The notes under the pieces are model-generated. The model was not told where the DNA came from and ran no database searches. It saw nothing but the letters and a program-made list of their open reading frames with translations. Source: Escherichia coli (lineage in GTDB: Bacteria > Pseudomonadota > Gammaproteobacteria > Enterobacterales > Enterobacteriaceae). Taken from it: DNA of 64,000 nucleotides. The stretch lies in assembly GCF_003334315.1 (NCBI RefSeq), contig NZ_QOWR01000013.1, one strand, 5' to 3'. Positions 5,150 to 16,306 of the stretch are shown piece after piece; position 1 is the stretch's first letter, and each line of letters starts with the position of its first letter. The translations under genes and the position numbers were made by a program.

Positions 5150-5515
5150 ATGATGTCCACCACGTTATTTAAAGATTTCACCTTCGAAGCCGCTCACCGC
5201 TTACCACACGTCCCGGAAGGGCATAAATGTGGTCGCCTGCACGGGCATTCCTTTATGGTGCGACTGGAAATTACCGGGGAAGTCGATCCGCATACGGGCT
5301 GGATTATCGATTTCGCTGAACTAAAAGCGGCGTTTAAACCAACCTACGAGCGCCTCGATCACCATTATCTCAATGATATTCCAGGTCTGGAAAACCCAAC
5401 CAGCGAGGTTTTAGCAAAATGGATTTGGGATCAGGTTAAACCCGTTGTGCCGCTGTTAAGTGCGGTGATGGTAAAAGAAACCTGCACCGCAGGTTGTATC
5501 TATCGCGGCGAATGA
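5150..5515 (+). CDS. queD: 6-carboxy-5,6,7,8-tetrahydropterin synthase
   Basis: Track ORF 5066..5515; start placed at [21 protein letters not shown]... (121 aa); CxxxHGH motif. Confidence 0.9.
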
Positions 5516-5592
5516 TAAGAGTGTGTCGGCGGTCAATTTCCCTTAAGTAACGCTATGTTAGGGTGTTGTGTTCTGGATATCTGGGGCATGAC

Positions 5593-6864
5593 ATGGAAGA
5601 CGACTGCGACATTATTATTATTGGTGCCGGTATTGCAGGCACCGCTTGCGCGTTACGCTGCGCGCGAGCGGGTTTATCCGTTTTGTTACTGGAACGCGCT
5701 GAAATCCCCGGCAGCAAAAATCTTTCCGGCGGGCGGTTATATACCCATGCACTCGCGGAACTCCTCCCGCAATTTCATCTGACCGCGCCTCTTGAACGAC
5801 GCATCACTCACGAAAGCCTTTCCCTGTTAACGCCGGATGGCGCAACGACGTTTTCCAGCTTACAGCCCGGCGGTGAATCCTGGAGTGTATTACGTGCACG
5901 GTTCGATCCGTGGCTGGTTGCCGAAGCCGAAGAAGAAGGTGTCGAATGCATCCCCGGAGCGACGGTGGATGCACTGTATGAAGAAAACGGCAGGGTGTGT
6001 GGTGTCATTTGTGGTGACGATATTCTCCGTGCCCGTTATGTGGTGCTGGCAGAAGGTGCCAACAGCGTCCTGGCTGAGCGTCACGGGTTAGTGACTCGTC
6101 CTGCTGGTGAAGCGATGGCGTTGGGGATCAAAGAAGTGCTGTCGCTGGAACCATCCGCTATTGAAGAACGTTTTCATCTGGAGAATAACGAAGGCGCAGC
6201 GTTGCTGTTCAGCGGCAGGATCTGTGATGACTTACCCGGCGGCGCATTTCTTTATACTAATCAACAAACGCTCTCGTTAGGGATTGTTTGCCCGCTCTCT
6301 TCCCTTACGCAAAGCCGTGTTCCGGCAAGCGAGCTGCTGACTCGCTTTAAAGCGCATCCGGCAGTGCGCCCGCTTATCAAAAACACGGAATCACTGGAGT
6401 ATGGTGCGCATCTGGTGCCAGAAGGTGGCTTGCACAGTATGCCGGTGCAATACGCCGGTAACGGCTGGCTGCTGGTGGGCGATGCGTTGCGCAGTTGCGT
6501 CAATACCGGAATTTCCGTGCGCGGCATGGATATGGCGCTGACTGGCGCGCAGGCGGCGGCACAAACGCTGATAAGCGCCTGCCAGCACCGCGAGCCGCAA
6601 AATCTGTTTCCGCTTTATCATCACAACGTAGAGCGCAGCCTGCTGTGGGATGTTCTACAGCGTTATCAGCATGTTCCGGCGCTTTTGCAACGCCCGGGAT
6701 GGTACCGTACGTGGCCTGCGTTAATGCAAGATATTTCCCGCGATTTATGGGATCAGGGTGATAAACCTGTTCCACCGCTGCGCCAGTTATTCTGGCATCA
6801 TTTACGTCGTCACGGCCTGTGGCATCTGGCGGGCGATGTTATCAGGAGTCTGCGATGTCTGTAG
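5593..6864 (+). CDS. ygcN: FixC-like FAD-dependent oxidoreductase (ETF-quinone oxidoreductase family)
   Basis: Track ORF 5563..6864; start placed at MEDDCDIIIIGAGIAG (Rossmann FAD motif), giving 423 aa. Confidence 0.85.
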   Translation: MEDDCDIIIIGAGIAGTACALRCARAGLSVLLLERAEIPGSKNLSGGRLYTHALAELLPQFHLTAPLERRITHESLSLLTPDGATTFSSLQPGGESWSVLRARFDPWLVAEAEEEGVECIPGATVDALYEENGRVCGVICGDDILRARYVVLAEGANSVLAERHGLVTRPAGEAMALGIKEVLSLEPSAIEERFHLENNEGAALLFSGRICDDLPGGAFLYTNQQTLSLGIVCPLSSLTQSRVPASELLTRFKAHPAVRPLIKNTESLEYGAHLVPEGGLHSMPVQYAGNGWLLVGDALRSCVNTGISVRGMDMALTGAQAAAQTLISACQHREPQNLFPLYHHNVERSLLWDVLQRYQHVPALLQRPGWYRTWPALMQDISRDLWDQGDKPVPPLRQLFWHHLRRHGLWHLAGDVIRSLRCL

Positions 6865-13523: not shown

Positions 13524-14801
13524 ATGCAACACAACTCATATCGCCGTTGGATAACCCTCGCGATAATTAGTTTTAGCGGCGGCGTTAGTTTCGACCTGGC
13601 TTATTTACGTTATATTTATCAAATTCCCATGGCGAAATTTATGGGATTCAGCAATACCGAGATAGGTTTAATAATGAGTACCTTTGGTATTGCGGCCATT
13701 ATTCTTTATGCCCCCAGCGGCGTTATTGCCGATAAATTTTCACACCGCAAAATGATTACTTCCGCGATGATCATTACCGGATTACTGGGTCTGTTAATGG
13801 CAACGTATCCACCGCTGTGGGTAATGCTCTGTATTCAGATCGCCTTTGCGATAACGACGATTTTAATGCTGTGGTCGGTGTCGATTAAAGCTGCATCGTT
13901 GCTTGGCGATCATAGCGAGCAAGGGAAAATTATGGGCTGGATGGAAGGGCTGCGCGGCGTCGGTGTAATGTCGCTGGCGGTGTTTACCATGTGGGTCTTT
14001 TCTCGCTTTGCACCGGATGACAGCACCAGCCTGAAAACGGTCATTATCATCTATAGTGTGGTTTACATCTTGTTGGGGATTCTGTGCTGGTTTTTTGTTA
14101 GCGATAACAACAACCTGCGCAGTGCCAATAACGAAGAAAAACAGTCATTCCAGCTTAGCGACATCCTGGCCGTTTTGCGTATCAGCACCACCTGGTATTG
14201 CAGCATGGTGATTTTTGGCGTCTTCACCATCTACGCCATTCTGAGTTACTCCACCAACTATCTGACCGAAATGTATGGCATGTCGCTGGTGGCGGCGAGC
14301 TACATGGGGATTGTGATCAACAAAATATTCCGCGCGCTGTGCGGCCCACTTGGCGGCATAATCACCACCTACAGCAAAGTGAAATCCCCTACCCGCGTGA
14401 TCCAAATCCTTTCCGTACTCGGCCTGCTGACGTTAACTGCCCTGCTCGTCACGAACTCTAACCCGCAATCGGTCGCGATGGGGATTGGCCTGATTTTACT
14501 GCTGGGATTCACCTGTTACGCCTCACGCGGGCTGTACTGGGCCTGCCCTGGCGAAGCGAGAACACCGTCTTACATTATGGGCACCACGGTAGGTATTTGT
14601 TCGGTGATTGGATTCCTGCCGGATGTCTTCGTTTACCCAATTATCGGCCACTGGCAAGACACCCTGCCCGCAGTAGAAGCCTACCGCAATATGTGGCTGA
14701 TGGGCATGGCGGCGCTTGTCATGGTGATTGTCTTTACCTTTTTGCTGTTCCAAAAAATTCGTACTGCTGATAGCGCCCCCGCAATGGCTAGCAGCAAGTA
14801 A
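13524..14801 (+). CDS. yqcE: MFS transporter
   Basis: 425-aa ORF recognised as YqcE; multi-pass membrane protein. Confidence 0.88.
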   Translation: MQHNSYRRWITLAIISFSGGVSFDLAYLRYIYQIPMAKFMGFSNTEIGLIMSTFGIAAIILYAPSGVIADKFSHRKMITSAMIITGLLGLLMATYPPLWVMLCIQIAFAITTILMLWSVSIKAASLLGDHSEQGKIMGWMEGLRGVGVMSLAVFTMWVFSRFAPDDSTSLKTVIIIYSVVYILLGILCWFFVSDNNNLRSANNEEKQSFQLSDILAVLRISTTWYCSMVIFGVFTIYAILSYSTNYLTEMYGMSLVAASYMGIVINKIFRALCGPLGGIITTYSKVKSPTRVIQILSVLGLLTLTALLVTNSNPQSVAMGIGLILLLGFTCYASRGLYWACPGEARTPSYIMGTTVGICSVIGFLPDVFVYPIIGHWQDTLPAVEAYRNMWLMGMAALVMVIVFTFLLFQKIRTADSAPAMASSK

Positions 14802-14827
14802 GCCAGGAAAATTACAGGAGAAAAATC

Positions 14828-16306
14828 ATGTCGAAGAAATACATCATAGGGATTGATGGCGGAAGTCAGAGCACAAAAGTGGTGATGTACGATCTGGAAG
14901 GTAACGTGGTTTGCGAAGGCAAAGGCTTATTGCAGCCGATGCACACGCCAGATGCCGATACTGCAGAACATCCTGACGACGATTTATGGGCATCATTATG
15001 TTTTGCCGGTCACGATTTGATGAGTCAGTTTGCCGGAAATAAAGAAGATATTGTCGGTATTGGTCTGGGCTCCATCCGTTGCTGCCGTGCGTTATTGAAA
15101 GCCGATGGCACGCCTGCTGCGCCGTTGATTAGCTGGCAGGATGCACGCGTTACACGCCCTTACGAACATACGAATCCTGACGTGGCGTATGTCACCTCTT
15201 TTTCGGGTTATCTGACGCATCGCTTAACCGGCGAGTTTAAAGACAATATCGCCAACTATTTTGGTCAGTGGTCGGTGGATTATAAGAGCTGGGCATGGAG
15301 TGAAGATGCCGCAGTCATGGAGAAGTTTAATATCCCCCGTCATATGCTGTTTGATGTGCAAATGCCTGGTACCGTCCTCGGACATATCACACCACAAGCC
15401 GCGCTGGCGACACATTTCCCGGCAGGACTGCCGGTTGTTTGTACCACCAGTGATAAACCGGTAGAAGCTCTGGGGGCCGGATTACTGGATGATGAAACGG
15501 CGGTAATTTCTCTTGGCACTTACATCGCATTGATGATGAACGGCAAAGCACTGCCGAAAGATCCAGTAGCGTACTGGCCGATTATGTCTTCTATTCCGCA
15601 AACATTGCTGTATGAAGGTTACGGTATTCGCAAAGGCATGTGGACGGTGAGCTGGCTGCGCGACATGCTAGGCGAGTCGTTAATTCAGGATGCCAGGGCG
15701 CAGGATCTTTCACCGGAAGATTTACTCAACAAAAAAGCTTCTTGTGTGCCGCCAGGCTGTAATGGTCTGATGACGGTGCTGGACTGGCTGACCAATCCGT
15801 GGGAACCGTACAAACGCGGGATTATGATCGGCTTTGATTCCAGCATGGATTACGCATGGATATATCGTTCGATACTGGAAAGCGTGGCGCTGACGCTGAA
15901 GAACAATTACGACAATATGTGTAATGAAATCAATCACTTTGCGAAGCATGTGATCATTACTGGCGGCGGTTCGAACAGCGATCTGTTTATGCAGATTTTT
16001 GCCGACGTGTTCAACCTTCCGGCACGACGTAACGCCATTAACGGTTGTGCAAGCCTGGGGGCAGCGATTAATACAGCGGTAGGTCTGGGGCTATACCCGG
16101 ATTACGCAACGGCTGTCGATAACATGGTTCGCGTGAAAGATATCTTTATACCGATTGAGAGCAATGCCAAACGCTACGACGCGATGAATAAAGGCATTTT
16201 CAAAGACCTAACCAAACATACTGATGTGATCCTGAAAAAATCGTATGAAGTGATGCATGGGGAATTGGGGAATGTGGATTCGATCCAGAGCTGGTCGAAT
16301 GCGTAA
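14828..16306 (+). CDS. ygcE: FGGY-family carbohydrate kinase
   Basis: 492-aa ORF recognised as YgcE; glycerol/xylulose kinase-like N-terminus. Confidence 0.88.
   Translation: MSKKYIIGIDGGSQSTKVVMYDLEGNVVCEGKGLLQPMHTPDADTAEHPDDDLWASLCFAGHDLMSQFAGNKEDIVGIGLGSIRCCRALLKADGTPAAPLISWQDARVTRPYEHTNPDVAYVTSFSGYLTHRLTGEFKDNIANYFGQWSVDYKSWAWSEDAAVMEKFNIPRHMLFDVQMPGTVLGHITPQAALATHFPAGLPVVCTTSDKPVEALGAGLLDDETAVISLGTYIALMMNGKALPKDPVAYWPIMSSIPQTLLYEGYGIRKGMWTVSWLRDMLGESLIQDARAQDLSPEDLLNKKASCVPPGCNGLMTVLDWLTNPWEPYKRGIMIGFDSSMDYAWIYRSILESVALTLKNNYDNMCNEINHFAKHVIITGGGSNSDLFMQIFADVFNLPARRNAINGCASLGAAINTAVGLGLYPDYATAVDNMVRVKDIFIPIESNAKRYDAMNKGIFKDLTKHTDVILKKSYEVMHGELGNVDSIQSWSNA

Follow-up and report, generated by a model that had tools for sequence, protein, structure and literature searches.

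Gene content of the ygc locus

The window analyzed here is a stretch of 64,000 nucleotides of Escherichia coli DNA, within which positions 5150 to 16306 match the E. coli chromosome with 99.9% identity over 100% of their length. At least 80% of this region was covered in one place in 5061 of 5426 complete genomes. It is the ygc locus of E. coli, an already known cluster, whose module genes are as follows.

ygcN, 5593..6864, + strand: FixC/YdiS-like FAD oxidoreductase, putative ETF:quinone oxidoreductase (RefSeq annotation)
ygcO, 6855..7115, + strand: FixX-like ferredoxin (RefSeq annotation)
ygcP, 7132..7707, + strand: GlpP-family antiterminator protein, proposed regulator of both leaders described below
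ygcQ, 7855..8715, - strand: ETF alpha-like subunit
ygcR, 8712..9491, - strand: ETF beta-like subunit
ygcS, 9469..10875, - strand: MFS transporter, start codon at 10875 or 10806
ygcU, 10897..12351, - strand: alkyl-DHAP-synthase-like flavoenzyme (Pfam FAD_binding_4 and FAD-oxidase_C)
ygcW, 12421..13206, - strand: SDR of the KduD/gluconate-5-dehydrogenase type
yqcE, 13524..14801, + strand: MFS transporter, weak MFS family matches (RefSeq annotation)
ygcE, 14828..16306, + strand: FGGY-family kinase (Pfam FGGY_N, split match, and FGGY_C)

An earlier reading of this DNA, made from the sequence alone, had counted eleven genes while itself naming ten. The ten stand as module genes; the eleventh open reading frame in the region, queD (5153-5515), serves queuosine synthesis, lies outside the ygc module, and was rejected as a member. 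All ten family assignments of the sequence-only reading held against the RefSeq annotation of the matching chromosome, the open reading frame list, and profile-HMM searches, which confirmed each family, so that its observation stood for the genes and families but not for the member count. None of the matches among the ten proteins reached a curated NCBIfam cut-off, and none of the proteins can thus be named as an equivalog. The start/stop overlaps that had been reported were also present: the stop of ygcR shares the ATGA at 8712-8715 with the start of ygcQ, ygcS overlaps ygcR by 23 nt, and ygcN overlaps ygcO by 10 nt. These overlaps support an operon structure, and we infer three transcription units, namely, ygcN-O-P, ygcW-U-S-R-Q, and yqcE-ygcE.

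A core conserved in four phyla

Linkage of W-U-(R-Q)-E with P was found in 80 loci from Pseudomonadota, Desulfobacterota, Bacillota, and Actinomycetota. The conserved core consists of ygcP, ygcW, ygcU, and ygcE, usually with ygcR and ygcQ; ygcW adjoins ygcU in nearly every locus, and ygcE is a core gene across all phyla. The grouping of the ygc genes therefore exceeds chance, in support of the earlier idea that they form one functional unit.

The transporters vary with lineage. In Enterobacterales, ygcS was present in 36 of 39 loci and yqcE in 38 of 39, while beyond this order ygcS was found in no locus and yqcE in 6 of 43. In Photobacterium, yqcE is again paired with the kinase gene. YgcS resembles aromatic-acid symporters, sugar porters, and organic-cation carriers (TIGR00895, 179 bits; TIGR00879, 143.6 bits; TIGR00898, 137 bits). 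It is reported to be about 26% identical to NiaP and to raise NMN yield when overexpressed (PMC8601175).

Among the 43 non-enterobacterial loci, 15 harbor a BCCT gene, 10 harbor Opu/ProVWX genes, and 23 have either one; MttB-family methyltransferase genes were found in 7. Outside Enterobacterales, the core also adjoins genes for betaine-aldehyde-dehydrogenase-like and formaldehyde-handling enzymes. Since the core joins betaine/choline-type transporters and N-demethylating enzymes in other phyla, the likeliest substrate class is that of N-methylated cationic compounds with a hydroxylated or glycerol-like structure, and the substrate may thus not be a plain polyol. This quaternary-amine assignment may not extend to E. 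coli, as none of the 39 Enterobacterales loci has a BCCT or Opu transporter.

Two homologous leader RNAs behind CRP-like sites

The region between the divergent genes ygcW and yqcE contains the following elements.

ygcW leader RNA, 13229..13296, - strand: from the terminator scan, HMM match E 2.8e-15
P1 arms of the ygcW leader, - strand: 5' arm 13295-13289, 3' arm 13273-13267, the latter within the terminator 5' arm
Terminator of the ygcW leader, - strand: stem 13279-13238, U-run 13237-13229
CRP-like palindrome TGTGATcgtaATCACA, 13331..13346: upstream of the ygcW leader, recognized from the sequence
Second CRP-like site CGTGAttactcTCACA, 13388..13403: about 42 bp upstream of the 5' end of the yqcE leader, the putative transcription start
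yqcE leader RNA, 13438..13499, + strand: inverted repeat I25, HMM match E 1.2e-13
P1 arms of the yqcE leader, + strand: 13439-13444 and 13459-13464
Terminator of the yqcE leader, + strand: arms 13453-13469 and 13476-13492, U-run 13493-13499

The two leaders are homologous and are the sole two matches to the motif in the 64 kb. Each is about 65 nt long and has an alternative hairpin, P1, of 7 bp, which overlaps the terminator; in the ygcW leader, a conserved AGAG...GAGAAA loop lies between the P1 arms. Predicted folding energies were -42 and -32.6 kcal/mol for the ygcW leader (z, -7.2 and -5.9) and -22.7 kcal/mol for the yqcE leader (z, -3.7), values equalled by no shuffle, while P1 alone gave -6.7 and -1.4 kcal/mol.

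The P1 of yqcE differs from that of ygcW by compensatory changes. Across the aligned leaders, 94.9% and 92.3% of the P1 cells were paired, compared to at most 57% in slid controls, and six of the seven pairs showed changes on both sides. Cells changed on both sides numbered 24 and 13, where shuffling gave 6.9 and 3.1 and none of 500 shuffles attained the observed values, although these statistics overstate independence because many of the aligned leaders were drawn from related genomes. In the terminator, 7 of 12 pairs were compensatory.

The motif, which is absent from Rfam, occurred at 112 to 114 sites in about 60 loci of the four phyla, preceding ygcW (53 sites), yqcE (39), BCCT genes (9), ygcU (7), and an MttB gene (1); in some loci, it thus lies directly upstream of BCCT and MttB genes. 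Its occurrence followed that of ygcP, both being present in 57 loci and both missing in 21, with only five discordant loci, three of which were truncated contigs; the motif was not detectable in two ygcP-bearing loci, L078 and L081. No motif was found before ygcN-O-P. YgcP itself matches PF04309 (G3P_antiterm) over its full length (1.6e-62; PDB 3kts, 1.2e-27), and the ygcW and yqcE leaders are, judging from these sequence comparisons, most likely its targets.

The arrangement recalls that of Bacillus subtilis GlpP, also a PF04309 protein, whose targets (glpD, glpFK, and glpTQ) show the layout seen here: behind the promoter, the 5' untranslated region holds the site bound by the protein as well as an intrinsic terminator. 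In particular, the glpD leader has a short GGTC/GACC helix around a GAGA-rich loop, with its 3' arm in the 5' flank of the terminator. GlpP is induced by the compound that the kinase of its pathway makes, as proposed below for YgcP. The ygc system differs in that the genes under its control are not glycerol genes, in being joined with CRP sites in Enterobacterales, and in occurring also in Gram-negative bacteria and actinomycetes. Since the ygc leader model did not match the B. subtilis glpD leader at E values up to 100, the link is one of architecture and not of sequence homology.

If transcription begins where the 5' arm of P1 does, near 13296, the center of TGTGATcgtaATCACA is about 42 bp upstream of the start; this palindrome is kept upstream of ygcW in Enterobacterales. 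Both ygcW and yqcE are among the top-ranked predicted CRP sites (PMC1794230), and yqcE-ygcE is listed as newly Crp activated (PMC8085971). As both leaders sit behind CRP-like sites, ygcW-U-S-R-Q and yqcE-ygcE, out of the three transcription units, have control elements in common.

YgcU retains the catalytic residues of alkyl-DHAP synthase

No gene of the module is better conserved than ygcU, with 64 to 74% identity across the four phyla. The best solved relative of its product in profile searches is the ether-lipid synthesis enzyme ADPS (AGPS; PDB 4bby, 1.1e-55), with which it has two flavin domains in common. Arg419, Tyr578, and His615-617 of ADPS align with the invariant Arg262, Tyr398, and His438-440 of YgcU, while the EHG motif of 2-hydroxy-acid dehydrogenases is absent from YgcU. 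The earlier description as a FAD-linked oxidase hence stands for the flavin-oxidase family but not for a generic oxidase. YgcU (484 residues, against 584 to 658) lacks the N-terminal part of ADPS, its alignment beginning near ADPS residue 160 to 180, and it adjoins ETF, kinase, SDR, and transporter genes in catabolic operons, whereas ADPS serves lipid synthesis. ADPS chemistry is redox neutral, without net oxidation, and fits poorly with a conserved ETF adjoining ygcU.

The lactate dehydrogenase-ETF complex LctBCD of acetogens likewise has a FAD-linked oxidase of this superfamily encoded beside ETF genes (YgcU versus PDB 7qh2 chain C, 4.5e-22), and the ygc-like clusters of anaerobes contain a second oxidase, bearing EHG, and an ETF alpha with a ferredoxin domain. 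In contrast, YgcU has HHH where LctD-type enzymes show EHG, and E. coli has neither a second oxidase nor a ferredoxin-domain ETF.

YgcW scored 350.6 bits against NF005390 (cut-off, 369) and matched PDB 4z9y (1.8e-58). The closest solved relatives of YgcE are the AI-2 kinase LsrK (7e-29) and then glycerol kinases. In both the erythritol (EryA, EryB) and the AI-2 (LsrK) systems, a small polyol or ketone is phosphorylated by an FGGY kinase, and the product doubles as pathway intermediate and regulator signal. In erythritol catabolism, the flavoenzyme acts on the phosphate ester after the kinase step; however, EryB is a GlpD-type enzyme, while YgcU belongs to the flavin-oxidase family, and neither system has an ETF, an antiterminator, or a link to quaternary-amine transport.

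A divergent and dispensable electron-transfer chain

YgcQ matched the NCBIfam ETF alpha models at E values of 2.7e-21 to 5e-17 (76 bits, far below the cut-offs) and YgcR weakly matched the ETF beta models (3e-11, 43 bits); PF00766 and PF01012 are present in their respective homologues. YgcN scored 383.7 bits against NF007450 and 361.6 bits against FixC NF007542, both below cut-off, and YgcO scored 82 bits against FixX NF011993 (cut-off, 166). The ygcN gene was restricted to Enterobacterales (29 of 39 loci), and the gene maps show that these loci also hold ygcR and ygcQ. Several lineages do without ETF and FixCX, no ETF adjoining the core in the loci of Erwinia, Pantoea, some Serratia, halophilic bacilli, and Saccharopolyspora.

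A dedicated ETF alpha/beta is similarly combined with a flavoprotein resembling FixC and a ferredoxin resembling FixX in the FixABCX (with cai) and YdiQRST (with ydiO) sets of E. coli, whose genes adjoin that of the enzyme presumably served. The ygc set differs in that its partner is an ADPS-like flavoenzyme and not an acyl-CoA dehydrogenase, in the high divergence of YgcR/Q as ETFs, in the confinement of YgcN/O to Enterobacterales, and in the absence of the ETF itself from some lineages.

Proposed regulon and alternative explanations

The two leaders, their phyletic spread, the conserved core, the YgcU catalytic residues, and the betaine/choline wiring are new here. The best explanation of the whole, which we hold with moderate confidence, is that ygc would be a CRP- and YgcP-controlled catabolic regulon operating via a DHAP-like keto-phosphate. 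Each of the divergent operons would have a CRP-dependent promoter followed directly by its leader. Unaided, the leader would form a strong intrinsic terminator, so that the default state in this model is off. YgcP, together with a phosphorylated pathway intermediate, would stabilize the weak P1 with its purine-rich loop, and because P1 takes up the 5' flank of the terminator as its own 3' arm, it would block termination and allow read-through. As the transporter/kinase operon answers to the same control, the circuit would be self-reinforcing.

The substrate would enter via YgcS and/or YqcE. YgcW would oxidize the CHOH beside a terminal CH2OH, which YgcE would phosphorylate to X-CH2-CO-CH2-O-phosphate. 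This analogue of DHAP would probably be the inducer that YgcP binds; YgcU would then convert this compound, trading electrons with the adjacent YgcR/Q and, in Enterobacterales, through YgcN/O with quinone. The order YgcW, YgcE, YgcU is a guess, made by analogy with the specificities of relatives. It would replace the phosphorylation followed by flavin-dependent oxidation of the sequence-only reading, and the ADPS residues of YgcU fit a DHAP-like keto-phosphate made by oxidation first and phosphorylation second. That interpretation survives in part: YgcP is of the GlpP antiterminator family, the families support a dedicated ETF with a FixCX-like link to quinone, and our literature searches found no substrate assigned to ygc, as had been stated, but the comparative wiring outside Enterobacterales does not point to a polyol or sugar acid.

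The original scheme could nevertheless be true for E. coli, which we regard as possible but rather unlikely: the MFS carriers would import a neutral substrate (polyol, ketose, or sugar acid), which YgcE would phosphorylate and YgcU then oxidize, much as erythritol and glycerol are catabolized, with ETF passing electrons to quinone, and the quaternary-amine wiring elsewhere would reflect another substrate of the same enzyme core. The carriers in Enterobacterales are indeed all MFS, YgcS scores as a sugar porter, YgcW scores as a KduD or gluconate-5-dehydrogenase, sugars and polyols are FGGY kinase substrates, and sugar operons are typically under CRP. Yet the identity of YgcU across phyla argues for one conserved substrate, a Photobacterium cluster unites a BCCT gene with the yqcE-ygcE pair, YgcU has ADPS residues instead of EHG, and YgcS also matches organic-cation carriers. 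An alternative glycerol route, in which YgcE would be a glycerol kinase, YgcU with ETF a glycerol-3-phosphate dehydrogenase, and YgcP a glycerol-3-phosphate sensor like GlpP, is very improbable. The characterized PF04309 member binds glycerol-3-phosphate, glycerol kinases are among the relatives of YgcE, and the glycerol-3-phosphate/DHAP pair would suit the ADPS-like residues; however, YgcE reached 100 bits with glycerol-kinase models, far below the cut-off of 590, LsrK and xylulokinase being better, and this route accounts neither for the always-present YgcW and both transporters nor for the BCCT/Opu/MttB wiring and the distinctness of the leader sequence. To our knowledge, E. coli glpK or glpD/glpABC mutants are not rescued by the ygc locus.

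Least probable of all is that the hairpins are ordinary terminators or insulators of a divergent intergenic region, with YgcP inactive or acting elsewhere and the genes not co-regulated. P1 alone folds no better than shuffles, and ygcP lies in the third transcription unit, which has no leader motif; but the hairpins stand in sense orientation between the promoter-like region and the start codon of either operon, non-stem sequence is conserved, P1 shows compensatory changes, and the leaders precede the same genes in four phyla and co-occur with ygcP. Within the keto-phosphate model favored here, electrons could also run in the reverse direction, as proposed for CaiA with FixABCX, from quinol or NADH via YgcN/O and YgcR/Q to YgcU, which would reductively cleave or reduce the keto-phosphate, making the compound partly an anaerobic electron sink. 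We consider this doubtful. It would accord with the lack of net oxidation generally known for ADPS-type chemistry, with the paralogy of YgcN/O/Q/R to FixC/X/B/A, and with retention of the ETF in facultative and strict anaerobes and its loss in aerobic lineages, but the second oxidase and ferredoxin-domain ETF of anaerobes, like those of lactate-oxidizing LctBCD, suggest oxidative use. Citrobacter FixABC proteins are up on carnitine, in favor of the reductive direction, although the authors pose the direction of electron flow as a question (PMC12482172). The reductive alternative concerns direction alone and is compatible with the leader regulation model.

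Composition of the ygc module

The segment at 5150-16306 is the ygc region of the E. coli chromosome; many complete genomes match it over its full length at 99.9% identity, and at least 80% of it is covered in one place in 5061 of the 5426 complete E. coli genomes. It is flanked by cysJIH upstream and by a CRISPR array and queE downstream. From the ORF list and the RefSeq annotation of a matching chromosome, we obtained the following gene layout:

5153-5515, plus strand: queD
5593-6864, plus strand: ygcN
6855-7115, plus strand: ygcO
7132-7707, plus strand: ygcP
7855-8715, minus strand: ygcQ
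8712-9491, minus strand: ygcR
9469-10875, minus strand: ygcS
10897-12351, minus strand: ygcU
12421-13206, minus strand: ygcW
13524-14801, plus strand: yqcE
14828-16306, plus strand: ygcE

The sequence-only reading had taken eleven genes as one functional unit. The ten named ygc and yqc genes stand as such, while the eleventh, queD, makes a queuosine precursor and lies outside the module. The start/stop overlaps quoted for ygcS-ygcR, ygcR-ygcQ, and ygcN-ygcO were all recovered in the ORF list, the annotation, and the sequence, and profile searches agreed with every family call. Without queD, the observation was essentially right; its interpretation, uptake of a polyol or sugar acid followed by phosphorylation and flavin-dependent oxidation, is supported in part and can be sharpened.

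Residues 12 to 184 of YgcP, the proposed regulator, cover model positions 1 to 173 of 173 of PF04309 (G3P_antiterm; E = 1.6e-62), and the protein matches PDB 3kts at 1.2e-27. YgcQ and YgcR are very divergent electron-transfer flavoprotein (ETF) alpha and beta subunits, scoring 76 bits (E = 2.7e-21) and 43 bits (E = 3.2e-11), respectively, in NCBIfam, well under the equivalog cutoffs, and their homologues bear PF00766 and PF01012. YgcN is FixC-like (383.7 bits to PRK10015 and 361.6 bits to FixC, both under the cutoff), and YgcO is a FixX-like ferredoxin (82 bits to FixX, under the cutoff). YgcS and YqcE belong to the MFS carriers, YgcW is an SDR whose closest match is KduD (350.6 bits; cutoff, 369), and YgcE is an FGGY kinase with both FGGY_N and FGGY_C domains, the FGGY_N match falling into two pieces with model positions 105 to 152 missing. 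Since none of the ygc proteins reached an NCBIfam equivalog cutoff, none can be given a specific functional name by homology. Full-text literature searches returned no paper assigning a substrate or studying YgcP. D-Serine induces ygcU 1.69-fold, and deletion of ygcU is without phenotype. Overexpression of YgcS leads to a higher NMN yield (PMC8601175).

Two homologous leaders precede the divergent operons

The divergent ygcW and yqcE genes are separated by 317 bp, in which there are two intrinsic terminators, one for each operon, both on the sense strand of their own operon and just 5' of the start codon. The ygcW terminator, found by terminator scan, has a 19-bp stem (13279-13238, minus strand) followed by U9, and its leader folds with -42 kcal/mol (z = -7.2). 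For yqcE, 15 of 17 stem positions are paired (13453-13469 with 13476-13492), U7 follows, and the leader folds with -22.7 kcal/mol (z = -3.7). The two leaders are homologous (CAGUUACCAGAGAUAAUGAGAAAGGUAAC versus CAAUUACUAGAGACC-UGAGAAAAGUAAU), and in both of them a short segment lying further 5' is able to base-pair with the terminator's 5' flank (AGUUACC/GGUAACU in one, AUUACU/AGUAAU in the other), giving an alternative hairpin, P1, which encloses a conserved purine-rich loop. On its own, P1 is of low stability (-6.7 and -1.4 kcal/mol) and does not outdo shuffled sequence; by default the leader therefore folds as the terminator, and P1 would depend on some factor to hold it.

CRP-like and -10-like sequences place putative promoters upstream of the leader terminators. 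Two CRP-like palindromes lie between the leaders:

13331-13346: CRP-like palindrome, perfect TGTGA-N6-TCACA
13388-13403: CRP-like palindrome with one mismatch

With a transcription start at the 5' end of P1, the center of each palindrome would lie about 42 bp upstream of it. The ygcW/yqcE region was among the best CRP sites predicted in earlier computational work (PMC1794230), and a transcriptome study counts yqcE-ygcE among newly Crp-activated units (PMC8085971).

Searching the leaders against Rfam 15 with E values up to 1 yielded no family, the only overlap being a chance-level rliE match (27.8 bits against a gathering score of 90; E = 0.48). Within the 64-kb window, the leader model matched exactly twice, at the leaders themselves (E = 2.8e-15 and 1.2e-13), and neither pattern nor HMM scans of the window found a third copy, for example, upstream of ygcN. 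The queD-ygcN interval (5153-5592) has no terminator-like site, and the adjacency of the two genes is kept in 21 enterobacterial loci; for these two reasons, transcription from queD might run on into ygcN-O-P and so cover the regulator gene as well.

The leader motif is found in several phyla together with ygcP

One genome per species was scanned with a YgcU alignment, which returned 80 loci in Enterobacterales, Desulfobacterota, Bacillota, and Actinomycetota; a Photobacterium locus was added from earlier context look-ups. Profile searches detected the leader motif at 112 to 114 sites in about 60 loci, placed before W (53), yqcE (39), BCCT transporter genes (9), U (7), and one MttB-family gene, single letters standing for the matching ygc genes. 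The motif was found upstream of the ygcW homologue in Photobacterium, Geosporobacter, Dethiosulfatibacter, Halobacillus, Thalassobacillus, Virgibacillus, Sporomusa, and Saccharopolyspora. By locus, motif and ygcP were both present in 57 cases and both absent in 21; three loci had only the motif, all of them truncated contigs, and two had only ygcP. The HMM was built from a strand-correct alignment, and an initial HMM made from both strands, and hence partly symmetric, gave the same result.

The two ygcP-only loci, L078 (a rumen Eubacterium MAG) and L081 (Bacillus sp. DNRA2), carry the full core, and the leader motif went undetected there; either their RNA is too diverged for the model to recognize or these organisms regulate the genes in another way.

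We then looked for covariation in P1. Because leaders with loop insertions were out of register in the MAFFT alignment A2, pairs were counted on A3, the subset without insertions, and on A5, an independent full-length alignment, both made with MAFFT and not fitted to P1. In A3, 94.9% of the cells pair and six of the seven pairs change on both sides; A5 gave 92.3%, again with six of seven two-sided. Double-change cells numbered 24 in A3 against 6.9 ± 2.0 in shuffles (0 of 500 reaching the observed value) and 13 in A5 against 3.1 ± 1.4, statistics that overstate independence because many of the leaders are related. Sliding the 3' arm reduced pairing to 57% or less. Compensatory versions of P1 include GUUAC/GUAAC, AUUAC/GUAAU, and, in Saccharopolyspora, GUCGC/GCGAC. 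The RNAalifold consensus was the terminator, with 7 of its 12 pairs compensatory.

The leaders resemble GlpP targets in architecture

In Bacillus subtilis, GlpP with glycerol-3-phosphate switches on glpD, glpFK, and glpTQ: it disrupts a terminator that lies in the 5' untranslated region (UTR), and the promoters of all three share a GlpP site and a terminator (PMC9604022). The ygc system likewise combines a PF04309 regulator with intrinsic terminators before the controlled operons, and the glpD 5' UTR (PMC9604022, supplement) is arranged like the ygc leaders, its own elements being GGTC, a GAGA-rich loop (CUGAGAUGAGGAGA), and a GACC that starts the 5' arm of the terminator. Sequence homology between the two was considered and dropped, since the ygc leader model gave no match to the B. 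subtilis glpD 5' UTR at E values up to 100; the likeness is thus one of architecture and not of sequence. As for the ligand, the gene context argues for a phosphorylated compound other than glycerol-3-phosphate.

A conserved core with variable transport and accessory genes

We mapped the E. coli ygc proteins onto all loci, 43 non-enterobacterial and 39 enterobacterial. P, W, U, and E make up the core. In 33 of the 43 and 29 of the 39 loci, respectively, R and Q come next after U, while N and O are confined to Enterobacterales, in loci whose gene maps also show R/Q. An adjacent ETF is missing from Erwinia, Pantoea, Izhakiella, some Serratia, halophilic bacilli, and Saccharopolyspora, and strict anaerobes have an additional, second oxidase, often with an ETF whose alpha subunit bears a ferredoxin domain.

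Transport differs sharply by group. Enterobacterales have YgcS and YqcE; among the 43 non-enterobacterial loci, 15 have BCCT carriers and 10 have ProVWX/Opu-type ABC systems (23 have either), and 7 encode an MttB-family methyltransferase. One MttB-family protein matches the Desulfitobacterium glycine betaine methyltransferase at 406 bits, and another MttB-family gene, in locus L072, has the leader motif directly upstream. On one Desulfobacula contig, genes for the methyltransferase, its corrinoid protein, and a methyl-tetrahydrofolate methyltransferase run codirectionally into W-U-R. Loci of the Serratia and Erwinia types contain a betaine-aldehyde-dehydrogenase-like enzyme, an aldo-keto reductase, and a member of the formaldehyde-activating-enzyme family, and an Alkalihalobacillus locus contains an aspartase-like lyase, a similar aldehyde dehydrogenase, and a class-III-type alcohol dehydrogenase. 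Taken together, the BCCT, ProVWX/Opu, MttB, and aldehyde/formaldehyde-enzyme neighbors point to a substrate or product that would be N-methylated and cationic or zwitterionic, at least outside Enterobacterales. A proteome of Citrobacter on quaternary amines reports Fix/Cai proteins, and a term search of that paper found no ygc-type proteins (PMC12482172).

Several details of these loci deserve mention. In L072 (11552-13948), the motif-bearing MttB-family gene is followed by a PanB-like 3-methyl-2-oxobutanoate hydroxymethyltransferase (339 bits, over the cutoff), an enzyme that uses methylene-tetrahydrofolate and is an odd partner in a methyltransferase operon. The formaldehyde-activating enzyme, 167 residues long (L041, 2285-2788; L028, 2386-2889), passes its NCBIfam cutoff (139.7 against 118 bits). 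Enterobacterales are not known to have tetrahydromethanopterin, and the enzyme is therefore unexpected in them. The second FAD oxidase, with an EHG motif, and a second ETF, with a ferredoxin domain at the N terminus of its alpha subunit, occur in anaerobes and Photobacterium, in L004 (13187-16591) and at equivalent positions in L057, L058, L059, L065, L081, and L084. This set resembles the electron-confurcating lactate dehydrogenase-ETF complex and suggests a 2-hydroxy acid as a product downstream of the ygc core.

YgcU is related to alkyl-DHAP synthase

E. coli YgcU shares 64 to 74% identity with its counterparts from three other phyla. Its architecture is FAD_binding_4 plus FAD-oxidase_C, and its best solved relative is alkyl-DHAP synthase (ADPS; 1.1e-55 with a profile). 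Arg419, Tyr578, and His615-617 of ADPS, Tyr578 being the residue altered in the 4bca mutant sequence, align with Arg262, Tyr398, and His438-440 of YgcU, all of which are invariant in YgcU. In contrast to ADPS, YgcU has 484 residues and lacks the N-terminal ~150, the alignment starting at ADPS residue 158 to 180; on this comparison, YgcU is ADPS-like rather than an ADPS, and in a catabolic gene context it is unlikely to exchange the acyl group of acyl-DHAP for a fatty alcohol. YgcU also differs from D-2-hydroxy-acid dehydrogenases of the GlcD/LctD type in having HHHGIGK instead of the C-terminal EHG(I/V)G, whereas the second oxidase of the anaerobe clusters resembles that type in its (G/S)EHG(L/V)G motif.

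The relatives of YgcW, KduD and gluconate 5-dehydrogenase, both oxidize a CHOH next to a terminal CH2OH, and those of YgcE, LsrK, xylulokinase, and glycerol kinase, phosphorylate a terminal CH2OH of this kind. YgcW followed by YgcE would hence yield X-CH2-CO-CH2-O-phosphate, the class of compound bound by ADPS. Membership in an erythritol-type pathway was rejected because YgcU is not of the GlpD/EryB type. Glycerophosphocholine, carnitine, and choline were not adopted as substrates by reasoning alone, there being a simpler known route or no terminal diol for an FGGY kinase. YgcR/Q would be the partner of YgcU, the support for this being the adjacency of U, R, and Q across phyla.

Evolution is much faster in the ETF subunits than in YgcU, their presumed partner (loci L006 to L046 compared with window 7855-9491): the phmmer score of YgcR falls from 568 at the E. 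coli reference locus to about 400 in Citrobacter, 215 in Pluralibacter, and 150 in Limnobaculum, while that of YgcU over the same genomes falls only from 1117 to about 940.

Proposed mechanism and its significance

Sequence and comparison establish the genes, the families, the leaders, the motif-ygcP link, the synteny of the core, and the residues common to YgcU and ADPS. We propose that CRP would activate both divergent promoters and that transcripts would end at the leader terminators unless YgcP, loaded with a ligand, holds P1; this ligand might be the phosphorylated intermediate made by YgcE. The enzymes would act in the order YgcW, YgcE, YgcU, with YgcR/Q exchanging electrons with YgcU in either direction and YgcN/O presumably joining YgcR/Q to quinone. 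The substrate may be a hydroxylated N-methylated cationic compound, and that of E. coli is perhaps unlike that of BCCT-bearing organisms. ADPS-type chemistry is redox neutral, which sits uneasily with an ETF beside YgcU.

A joint reading, which we consider improbable in its entirety, is that the SDR, the FGGY kinase, and the ADPS-like flavoenzyme form a widespread, undescribed pathway that detaches a trimethylammonium compound from a carrier resembling glycerol. Oxidation and phosphorylation of the diol end would give a DHAP analogue, and YgcU, by covalent flavin chemistry of the ADPS type, would break the C-O or C-N bond beside the carbonyl. This would release DHAP (or an oxidized C3 phosphate) and a betaine- or choline-type product, which neighboring genes would then demethylate or oxidize. 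Substrates could be deacylated betaine-lipid head groups or another glycerol-linked cation, and the switch would be a new cross-phylum class of GlpP-type leader RNA sensing the phosphorylated intermediate.

The ygc cluster was already known as a set of genes without assigned function; new here are a candidate target RNA for YgcP, the occurrence of that RNA in several phyla, the resemblance of YgcU to ADPS, and the wiring to quaternary amines. Nearly every E. coli carries these ten adjacent genes, still without a substrate, and the conservation of the core at the level of YgcU (64 to 74% across four phyla) implies that something common is metabolized. Bgl is a protein-dependent catabolic antitermination system of E. 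coli, and the regulatory model would add a second one, of GlpP type, whose leader RNA family is missing from Rfam. The leader also offers a direct way to the substrate: a ygcW- or yqcE-leader reporter should respond to the true substrate only, which turns ygc function into a screen. The comparative data narrow the candidates toward N-methylated cationic compounds, which matter for trimethylamine formation in the gut and for osmolyte turnover in marine and saline habitats. If YgcU does use ADPS-like chemistry in catabolism, this would be a new role for a rare flavin mechanism.

Additional observations

Locus L005 (JADFMM010000147.1, labeled as a Planctomycetota MAG) has a YgcU 100% identical to that of E. 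coli, followed by ygcS, and is almost certainly E. coli contamination of the metagenome bin. In the window, the gap between the convergent ygcP and ygcQ genes (7734-7807) is filled by a REP/BIME-like palindromic element with a subthreshold naRNA4 match in Rfam (34 bits against a gathering score of 59.5). The start codon of ygcS is uncertain (10806-10875, minus strand): the annotated protein (468 to 469 residues) opens with a 23-residue extension containing a 9-bp GC-rich hairpin (10855-10834, minus strand), a second ATG lies at 10806 (MNTSPV...), and the ygcU-ygcS junction may hold a structured element. A hairpin rich in GC (16315-16338) directly follows ygcE. After it come three degenerate CRISPR-repeat copies (16356-16382, 16417-16443, and 16465-16490), which may be remnants of an older array end, several hundred bases ahead of the regular array starting near 16948.
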